Origin: Dehalococcoidia bacterium
GTDB taxonomy: Bacteria; Chloroflexota; Dehalococcoidia; Lucifugimonadales; UBA3495
Length of the DNA: 64,000 nucleotides
Direction: 5' to 3'
Assembly: GCA_965115955.1 (NCBI GenBank)
Contig: OZ220473.1
Span: 2,662,410-2,726,409 of the forward strand
Shown here: piece by piece, positions 35,773 through 37,176 of the stretch
Numbering within the stretch: the first letter of the stretch is position 1
Layout: every line of letters starts with the position of its first letter
The notes under the pieces: generated by a model
Told to the model about the DNA's origin: nothing
Databases searched by the model: none
Seen by the model: only the letters and a program-made list of their open reading frames with translations
Translations under genes and position numbers: made by a program

Positions 35773-37056
35773 CTATGACACGGACGCCGTTAATTCCTTG
35801 ACCAGCAATTTCATCGCTGCCGGTTCATCGCTGCGAAAGTCCGCCTCATCACCACTTCTCAGCCGCCGGCACAGGCGATCCTGCCTCTGGTAGAACAAGT
35901 CTCCGAAGGCAAGGGCGGTTAGCGGAGCGGCAGGCGCTTGCCCCCCGGCGCGGACGAGTTCGGCGAAGTAACGGCTGGTAAGAGGATTTTCCAGGGCGGA
36001 GTCGGTGCAGAGCAGAGCCAGGCGGTCGTAGTACACAGTGTGGTCCAGAGAGGCTTCGCCCGAGTTAAGAGAGTCCTCATCGTCGGGATACAGCACCCAT
36101 GCAGGTATACGTTCCTCCATGAGTCCCAGACGCAGGCGCTCGGCAAGAGCATAATCAGCCATAGATGCAATCAGCAGCACCGTGGGAAACGCCCTGCGTT
36201 CGCATGTCATCGACTCTTGGGCGGCTATCAGAGGTTCAGCCACTCCCGCTCCCTGAAGGAACTGCCGTGGAATCCTCCCGCCGGAGCTGGAAAGGGTATC
36301 CAGGGCTATGACGCTGGGCGCCGTGTGTACCATGGAATCCAATCCGATTACCGATCGAAAGTCGCAGTTGGCGAACAGTGTCCCGCCTGCTTTTGCCAAG
36401 TGAAGAACGGAGCTGTCCAGCGAAGGCCTGACTATTTTTGCCCCCCTGAGGTCGGCCCCCGTCAGGTTCGCCATCGACAGAGATGCGCCGGTCAGGACAG
36501 AGCCTCTGAGGTCGGCATAGGCCAGGTTCGCCCAAGAGAGGTCGGCACAGGTCAGGTTGGTATCACTGAGGTCAGCCTGCTCCAGGTCGGCGTAGGAAAA
36601 CCCCGCATACGACAAGTCTGAGCCCTTGAGCGCCGCGTTGCTCAAAGTTCCGTTGGATACGTCGGCCCGGGTTAGCGAGCAGCCGGCCAGTTGGGCGCCG
36701 GCGAGGTTTGCGCGAGGCAGTCTGGCCCGGAACAGGTGCGCTCTGGTCAGGTTCGTTCCCGACAGATCCGCCATACGGAAGTCGCCGCCTGTGAGGTCGG
36801 CGCCGCTCAAGTCGTCATGGCGGAGGTCGGCTCCTGGCAGCTTGATCCCGCTGAGAAATGCTCCGGCCAGGTCTAGAGCGGGTCGTCCGTAAATGAACTC
36901 TGGGGTAAAAGTCTCGCCGGCTGCCCTGTCCTCCAGGCGATAGCCCAGATCGAATCGGGGCTGGCGAGTGTTCAGGGTGCGAAAGGTGAGTTCCCGCCAC
37001 CGGGCAATGGCGTTAGGCCCGGAACGCGCCAAGCCCACGTGATCAGGGTTGGCCAA
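35773..37056 (-). CDS. pentapeptide-repeat protein with C-terminal TIR-like domain
   Basis: 427 aa with about 30 A(D/N)LxG-type pentapeptide repeats (residues ~70-215). The C-terminus 'TVLLIASMADYALAERLRLGLMEERIPAWVLYPDD...YDRLALLCTDSALENPLTSRYFAEL' parallels the FISYS..D..FA..L...L...G...W pattern of TIR domains fused to pentapeptide repeats in cyanobacteria. Confidence 0.75.
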   Translation of the reverse strand: MANPDHVGLARSGPNAIARWRELTFRTLNTRQPRFDLGYRLEDRAAGETFTPEFIYGRPALDLAGAFLSGIKLPGADLRHDDLSGADLTGGDFRMADLSGTNLTRAHLFRARLPRANLAGAQLAGCSLTRADVSNGTLSNAALKGSDLSYAGFSYADLEQADLSDTNLTCADLSWANLAYADLRGSVLTGASLSMANLTGADLRGAKIVRPSLDSSVLHLAKAGGTLFANCDFRSVIGLDSMVHTAPSVIALDTLSSSGGRIPRQFLQGAGVAEPLIAAQESMTCERRAFPTVLLIASMADYALAERLRLGLMEERIPAWVLYPDDEDSLNSGEASLDHTVYYDRLALLCTDSALENPLTSRYFAELVRAGGQAPAAPLTALAFGDLFYQRQDRLCRRLRSGDEADFRSDEPAAMKLLVKELTASVS

Positions 37057-37176
37057 CTGCTACACCTCTCGCTGGAGCTACAGGGTAATGGCCCTGACCT
37101 GGCAATTATCGGCGGCTGGGTTCCCGCCGCCCTCTGCATACTGTCGTCAAGGCCATCCCGAAACTAACCGGGGGCA

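Follow-up and report, generated by a model that had tools for sequence, protein, structure and literature searches.

A diverged, conserved TIR domain without the catalytic glutamate in a pentapeptide-repeat protein of SAR202 Dehalococcoidia

Domain architecture of the pentapeptide-repeat/TIR protein

We analyzed a 64,000-nucleotide stretch of contig OZ220473.1 from a Dehalococcoidia bacterium (assembly GCA_965115955.1, positions 2,662,410 to 2,726,409), hereafter the window, which carries on its minus strand, at positions 35773..37056, a complete open reading frame (ORF) of 427 codons plus stop that begins with a TTG start codon. Based on the ORF call, domain analyses and orthologs, this gene encodes a fusion of pentapeptide repeats with a degenerate C-terminal TIR domain, an architecture that a preliminary description, made from the nucleotide sequence, had proposed and that matches to PF00805, AlphaFold models and hhalign comparisons bear out. 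The full-length AlphaFold model (mean predicted local distance difference test score, pLDDT, 86.5) comprises an N-terminal helical cap, a right-handed β-helix, a helical linker and the TIR domain.

The cap (residues 1-31, MANPDHVGLARSGPNAIARWRE..., 36964..37056, minus strand; model helices 4-11 and 14-31) is common to canonical pentapeptide-TIR proteins, by which we mean the members of the family whose TIR domain passes Pfam TIR_2/TIR, and whose consensus reads MANxEHLxxLKQGVxxWNxWR at this place. The cap helices are followed by a clade-specific insertion of about 30 residues (RTLNTRQPRFDLGYRLEDRAAGETFTPEFIYGRP, residues about 28-58, 36883..36975, minus strand), which is modelled with a pLDDT below 50 at residues 28-56, is well conserved in the SAR202 orthologs and is missing both from some divergent relatives (P0024, P0039, P0069 and P0096) and from the canonical members; mean column conservation over residues 1-60 of the orthologs is 0.80. 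Residues about 61-235 (36352..36876, minus strand) form the pentapeptide-repeat right-handed β-helix, as indicated by Pfam (PF00805, E 2.1e-34, 117.1 bits where the cut-off is 20.2, with matched stretches within about residues 62-220), by AlphaFold (pLDDT 90-98 from residue 61 to about 235, with a strand period of five residues) and by Foldseek, in which the best natural match was HetL (3du1; target-normalised TM-score 0.74, root-mean-square deviation 2.7). HetL and the other structural matches of the β-helix, MfpA, Qnr and AlbG, are quadrilateral right-handed β-helices of similar length but lack a TIR domain and the conserved linker. NCBIfam models gave no more than generic pentapeptide matches: the equivalogs for HetL (92.7 against 260), Qnr (45.8 against 240) and MfpA (39 against 360) all stayed far below their cut-offs, and the score of 155.8 for Alr5209 (cut-off 125) is the sum of four separate stretches on a 113-position repeat model of different architecture.

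The linker module (residues 236-290, GLDSMVHTAPSVIALDTLSSSGGRIPRQFLQGAGVAEPLIAAQ, 36187..36351, minus strand; helices 252-258, 264-269 and 274-284) stands out in the alignments as the most conserved element of the whole pentapeptide-TIR family, canonical members included. Of the 18 columns that are invariant across divergent and canonical members most lie here, among them L239, H244, P247, S248, S258, G260, I262, P263, F266, L267 and G271, and the family consensus of this region is GPSTIGIDTIYRSxGxIPExFLRGCGVPE. The resemblance of the N-terminus and of the post-repeat linker to a pentapeptide-TIR fusion family, pointed out in the preliminary description, is thus confirmed by the match to the family consensus.

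The C-terminal domain (residues 291-427, 35776..36186, minus strand) did not match any Pfam TIR family at E<=10, either in the whole protein or as the isolated C-terminal 145 amino acids. Modelled alone, it reached a mean pLDDT of 81 and a predicted TM-score (pTM) of 0.80 and showed the five-fold β-α order of the TIR superfamily, a flavodoxin-like fold in which five parallel strands and five helices alternate; the elements are βA (293-296), αA (299-314), βB (319-322), the BB loop, βC (345-350), αC (358-371), βD (379-383), βE (403-406) and αE (411-424). TIR domains gave the top TM-scores in a Foldseek search of the PDB (0.55-0.62), the matches including RRS1, RPS4, SARM1, SPARTA TIR-APAZ, BtpA, MAL, MyD88, TRAM and L6. 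Close homologs number 11 in a 90% cluster database, one of them labelled as coming from the sponge Geodia barretti, and in their alignment the C-terminal domain is strongly conserved. A weak TIR_2 match appeared in three of 10 close homologs (best E 0.0012), and a profile of the close homologs had no significant TIR match among PDB sequences (best E 0.66). Two entries from the same set of database homologs, P0007 and P0011, show a sudden end of similarity, in one case within the TIR domain and in the other in the preceding linker, a pattern that fits frameshifts, whether assembly errors or occasional pseudogenes, and five more (P0005, P0006 and P0008-P0010) were called as TIR-only fragments of 134-161 amino acids.

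The link to recognized TIR domains came from more distant relatives. A profile search of representatives over 338 positions, pentapeptide columns included, gave an output dominated by giant repeat proteins, from which we recovered nine relatives that share the cap, the repeats, the linker and the C-terminal domain. Four of these, P0146, P0055, P0076 and P0062, passed the Pfam TIR_2 gathering score of 28 (74, 54, 53 and 43 bits for the four passing scores), the others being weak. A profile of the linker and C-terminal domain retrieved 841 proteins, most with PF13676 or PF01582 in addition to pentapeptide repeats. When 14 divergent and 106 Pfam-positive canonical sequences, cut down to the TIR region and aligned beforehand as two independent sets, were compared by hhalign, the match extended over 124 columns with a probability of 99.0% and E 4.9e-18. 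Because the intermediates pass TIR_2 and hhalign joins the two sets, we conclude from this transitive chain of profile comparisons that the C-terminal domain is genuinely homologous to TIR domains, if highly diverged, despite the lack of a direct Pfam match. Of the predictions made for this region, the β-α order stood in the model, and a significant TIR profile match failed in the direct Pfam scan but emerged by way of the relatives.

Members of the pentapeptide-TIR family that NCBI names 'toll/interleukin-1 receptor domain-containing protein' occur in Ca. Amarolinea, Chlorobaculum, Prosthecochloris and Terriglobia. The preliminary description had called the family cyanobacterial; the named members seen here come from Chloroflexota, Chlorobiota and Acidobacteriota, with one more on an alphaproteobacterial plasmid (Skermanella), the single plasmid match for a canonical member. 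The canonical members, such as those from Chlorobaculum limnaeum (BIU88_07000), Ca. Amarolinea dominans and Prosthecochloris, carry the JGI name 'TIR domain/Pentapeptide repeats' and share with the window protein, in the same order, the cap MAxxEH...W..WR, the β-helix, the linker GLE.V.H.GPS.IG.DT...S.G.IP..FL..GVP and the C-terminal TIR domain, down to its end, DF..W....Y..A...L...L. By this shared architecture and sequence, the window protein is assigned by descent to a widespread single-gene pentapeptide-repeat/TIR family. The canonical members that we examined are single genes in unrelated contexts with no fixed partner. One of them lies at a contig end (L063, 1-4700) together with numerous short ORFs that lack annotation and a Fic-domain gene, in contrast to another (L064), which has a housekeeping context and adjoins a PemK toxin gene. 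A species-specific family of 16 pentapeptide-repeat paralogs has been described in Pelodictyon phaeoclathratiforme (PMC4606965); these paralogs might belong to the pentapeptide-TIR family, the named canonical matches being from other green sulfur bacteria. A literature search on pentapeptide repeats together with TIR domains returned no study of the fusion, only papers that mention such repeats in general terms as part of conflict systems.

Loss of the NADase motif and conservation of the TIR domain

Canonical members keep the αC motif S-x-W-V-x-x-E, with Glu in the catalytic column in 104 of 106 sequences and Trp in 64 of 106. On alignment of canonical P0062 with the NAD+ hydrolase (NADase) AbTIR, the W falls on W and the E on E, the latter being the residue that we take to be catalytic in AbTIR. 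In the window protein the canonical W-x-x-x-E is replaced by L359-T-S-R-Y363 (35968..35982, minus strand): a joint MAFFT alignment and hhalign are both gapless from the invariant Y-D-(K/R)-L of βC to αC, and both pair Leu359 with the canonical Trp and Tyr363 with the canonical Glu. Among 61 orthologs the catalytic column holds Tyr in 54, Phe in five and His in one, and Glu in none (Y/L/F in the divergent clade of the joint alignment), and the Trp is likewise gone from all 61. Further near-invariant canonical residues are replaced in the divergent clade, namely the Ser at column 73 (S-Y-S), Arg 97, Asp 118, Glu 158 and Pro 201 (columns of the joint MAFFT alignment). As judged from these alignments, the TIR domain in the SAR202/Dehalococcoidia lineage has lost the W-x-x-x-E NADase motif together with most canonical signature residues. 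A more divergent Glu-less member without the cap insertion is labelled 'pentapeptide repeat-containing protein [SAR202 cluster bacterium]' at NCBI; the label names the repeats only, so current annotation misses the TIR domain.

The preliminary description had singled out the glutamate of an FAE motif as the one remaining candidate catalytic residue. This residue, E366 (35959..35961, minus strand), lies three positions past the catalytic column, which is occupied by Y363, and is Glu in 64% of the orthologs (E39, S12, Q5, T4 among 61); the corresponding column is variable in the canonical family (R39/A30/T22). We also considered whether a three-residue loop insertion could bring E366 into the catalytic position and rejected this, given the gapless βC-αC alignment and the poor conservation of E366. 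The candidate glutamate was therefore not upheld.

Nearly invariant in the clade is a BB-loop-like motif, D325-D326-E327-x-x-L330-x-x-G333 (36058..36084, minus strand), in which D325, E327 and G333 are present in 61/61 orthologs, D326 in 60/61 and L330 in 52/61. The D-E-x-x-L-x-x-G spacing is the same as in the AbTIR BB loop WYDEFTLKVG, a comparison made by eye and without a statistical test. Y343-D344-R345-L346, C350-T351 and S361 are also invariant or nearly so in the 61 orthologs. In fold the domain resembles the bacterial TIR NADases AbTIR (7uwg, 8g83), BtpA/TcpB (4lzp, 4lqc), PdTIR (3h16) and SPARTA TIR-APAZ (8qlp), and with AbTIR it shares the BB-loop pattern as well; it differs in having Tyr where these enzymes use the αC Glu, and Leu in place of Trp. 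The window clade is set apart from the canonical members by the L...Y substitution, by a longer BB loop with D-D-E, by the 30-residue insertion after the cap, by a universal TTG start and by fixed synteny in SAR202 genomes.

A pattern search over one genome per GTDB species identified 58 loci, all of them in Dehalococcoidia, SAR202-cluster or Chloroflexota metagenome-assembled genomes (MAGs) except for one labelled Caldilineales. Full-length in-frame orthologs with 51-77% identity are present in 57 of these 58 genomes; in the remaining one the gene is truncated where the contig ends. Nei-Gojobori (NG86) estimates of omega over 643 pairs were 0.13 for the cap, 0.22 for the repeats, 0.20 for the linker and 0.25 for the TIR domain, values that are rough since synonymous divergence (dS about 1.2) is near saturation. 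The TIR domain is the fastest-evolving part (mean column conservation 0.66, compared to 0.74-0.80 elsewhere) and contains more than 15 invariant columns among the orthologs. These estimates indicate that the whole protein is under purifying selection and that the TIR domain is maintained and clearly constrained.

Translation start and genomic context

The TTG start codon (37054..37056, minus strand) is the same in all orthologs with an intact 5' end (57/57; loci L001-L062, aligned starts). In the window gene an in-frame TAG lies two codons upstream of the TTG (37060-37062), which excludes an alternative start there, and a Shine-Dalgarno-like GAGAGGTG is located 6 nt upstream (37063..37070, minus strand). 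In most orthologs a purine run of the GAGG/AGGAG type precedes the TTG by a similar distance, degenerate in a few, and outside this run the upstream sequence is not conserved. As a control, two upstream genes at the same loci start with ATG in 39/47 and 48/49 cases, and two canonical pentapeptide-TIR relatives start with ATG and GTG. That all these orthologs retain a weak TTG start, when the neighbouring genes mostly use ATG, suggests that low expression or weak initiation has been selected for. A terminator scan around the gene found none, and a promoter scan of the same region returned a single promoter-like site, downstream at the start of the γ-glutamyltranspeptidase (GGT) gene, which is uninformative for the gene studied here.

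The neighbours of the gene are metabolic, as the preliminary description had stated: downstream in the window lie genes for an AhpC-like peroxiredoxin, a short-chain dehydrogenase (SDR) and GGT, and upstream those for a luciferase-like monooxygenase, a family III CoA-transferase, another dehydrogenase (SDR), an HhH-GPD glycosylase, SfsA and OMP decarboxylase. The CoA-transferase, monooxygenase, pentapeptide-TIR and GGT genes lie in this order on one strand in about 50 of 58 genomes, with identities of 70-91% for the conserved neighbours. Roughly eight of the most divergent orthologs are located elsewhere, and at several other loci no monooxygenase adjoins the gene. Functional coupling to the monooxygenase/CoA-transferase pair was considered and is unsupported, as the whole 16-kb block is collinear, about eight divergent orthologs are found elsewhere and the monooxygenase is sometimes missing. 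Between 32000 and 43600, from AhpC through OMP decarboxylase, the gene order of the window is collinear with that of Dehalococcoidia/SAR202 MAGs, several of them long-read and chromosome-level, by which the window belongs to this lineage; the best relative is 77% identical in the pentapeptide-TIR protein and 91% in the neighbours. At two loci (L001, 9214-9633; L004, 8660-9004) a small antisense ORF of 114-139 amino acids without a Pfam match lies directly downstream of the gene; at L001 a glutamate dehydrogenase gene is inserted before GGT, where the gap in the window is only 200 bp.

No PADLOC defence model matched the window protein at E<=10, no defence genes were seen among its neighbours in the window and a phage search with the window domain gave no match. 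Given these results, the metabolic neighbours and the fixed synteny, the gene is not a mobile defence gene, and the defence or NADase role implied in the preliminary description is unsupported. We conclude that the locus reflects general collinearity of a core region rather than a defence island, with vertical inheritance at a fixed position, and that the gene, conserved and syntenic, is confined to SAR202/Dehalococcoidia, a marine and sponge-associated group.

Possible function of the glutamate-less TIR domain

The reading that we moderately favour is that of a diverged, conserved, Glu-less TIR domain borne on a pentapeptide β-helix and acting as a non-enzymatic assembly or adaptor module. 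The protein would be cytoplasmic and is built from two modules, the capped β-helix in its N-terminal two thirds and the C-terminal TIR domain, joined by the conserved 55-residue helical linker. Most likely the TIR domain is maintained but non-enzymatic: it would no longer cleave NAD+ and, with moderate confidence, may serve in BB-loop-dependent self-association or partner docking, as in the TIR domains of the animal proteins MyD88, MAL, TRAM and the TLRs, which assemble through the BB loop without catalysis. MyD88, MAL and TRAM are among the structural matches; they have no specific sequence relationship to the window protein, are eukaryotic and carry other partner domains (death domain, leucine-rich repeats). 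The β-helix would provide the surface that binds a target, which may be a DNA-binding enzyme recognized by DNA mimicry, by analogy to Qnr and MfpA, or a peptide or protein, by analogy to HetL, and the conserved weak start codon would keep the protein at low copy number.

Several observations weigh against this interpretation. The most conserved residues of the TIR domain (BB loop, end of βC, start of αC) appear, by their place in the alignment, to surround the would-be NAD+ pocket, and such conservation is what an assembly interface would show, but a ligand-binding site or a rebuilt active site would show it just as well. With a net charge of only -3 over 175 residues, the β-helix is not strongly DNA-like, and the omega values carry the uncertainty of near-saturated dS. 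The activity of the ancestor is itself no more than probable, the literature search having turned up no biochemical work on canonical or other pentapeptide-TIR proteins. Lastly, receiver domains and flavodoxins reached TM-scores of about 0.5 with similar E-values in Foldseek, so that the fold alone is not decisive. These same receiver and flavodoxin matches, among the top ones, along with the missing direct Pfam match, would favour a C-terminal domain of another flavodoxin-like fold, for example a CheY-like receiver, yet the continuous homology to Pfam-positive TIR domains that share the N-cap, repeats and linker, the higher TM-scores of TIR targets and the failure to see a receiver Asp pocket motif leave this possibility essentially refuted. 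Scarcely more probable, and largely refuted as well, is that the domain is a decaying relic next to a functional pentapeptide-repeat part: its faster evolution, its lost Pfam signature and the two homologs apparently frameshifted in or before it are what decay would produce, but the domain runs to its full length without a frame break in 57 of 58 species genomes, down to 51% identity, with an omega of about 0.25 and more than 15 invariant columns.

The evidence leaves more room for a TIR domain that is still an enzyme, be it an NADase, a nucleotide-signal synthase or a catalyst of other chemistry, with a site rebuilt around D325/D326/E327 or Tyr363 and the β-helix acting as the sensor of a one-gene sensor-effector. 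The clustering of invariant residues, by sequence, in the segments lining the TIR pocket (loops and the start of a helix), the purifying selection on the domain and an ancestor that, with a canonical catalytic Glu in 104/106 members, was probably enzymatic are all compatible with it, and the conserved weak TTG would suit a potentially toxic protein. We nonetheless regard it as unlikely: to our knowledge the αC Glu is required in every TIR NADase tested (SARM1, AbTIR, ThsB and TIR-APAZ), both W and E are gone in 61/61 orthologs, E366 is just 64% conserved, and the gene occupies a fixed place in the core genome, with neither defence context nor PADLOC match. Less probable still, in our view, is a non-catalytic receptor, in which the degenerate pocket would bind a small molecule such as a nucleotide and a metabolite or signal would alter binding by the β-helix; pocket-lining segments that are kept while the catalytic residue is lost are typical of enzymes turned into binding domains, but the gene has no associated ligand, partner gene or enzyme that would produce a signal, and its neighbours follow general collinearity.

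As a speculation to which we give rather little weight, a conflict-type TIR may have been domesticated throughout SAR202 Dehalococcoidia, in free-living and sponge-associated members alike, into a core housekeeping factor of low expression, in which the domain would serve as a non-enzymatic scaffold or use a pocket rebuilt around D-D-E/Tyr363 for a new ligand or chemistry and the helix would target a conserved cellular DNA-binding enzyme; it would then exemplify, in bacteria, a scaffold-type or neofunctionalised TIR outside immunity. The locus matters beyond this clade, as a bacterial TIR domain is nowadays taken almost by default to be an immune effector that consumes NAD+, and the window locus does not fit: here selection has retained a Glu-less TIR domain at a single place in the chromosome across at least 58 species of an abundant lineage of ocean bacteria and sponge symbionts. 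The architecture itself was already present in databases; what is new is a clade that Pfam misses, that lacks the catalytic Glu and that is fixed in the core genome of its lineage. Should the TIR domain turn out to be a structural appendage, the result would still be a correction of annotation, in that a TIR fold does not imply an NADase or a role in defence. If instead the domain serves assembly or ligand binding, the window protein, a candidate bacterial scaffold-type TIR by analogy to animal adaptors, would be a bacterial counterpart of the animal scaffold TIRs and could help to work out what the large, uncharacterised pentapeptide-TIR family does.

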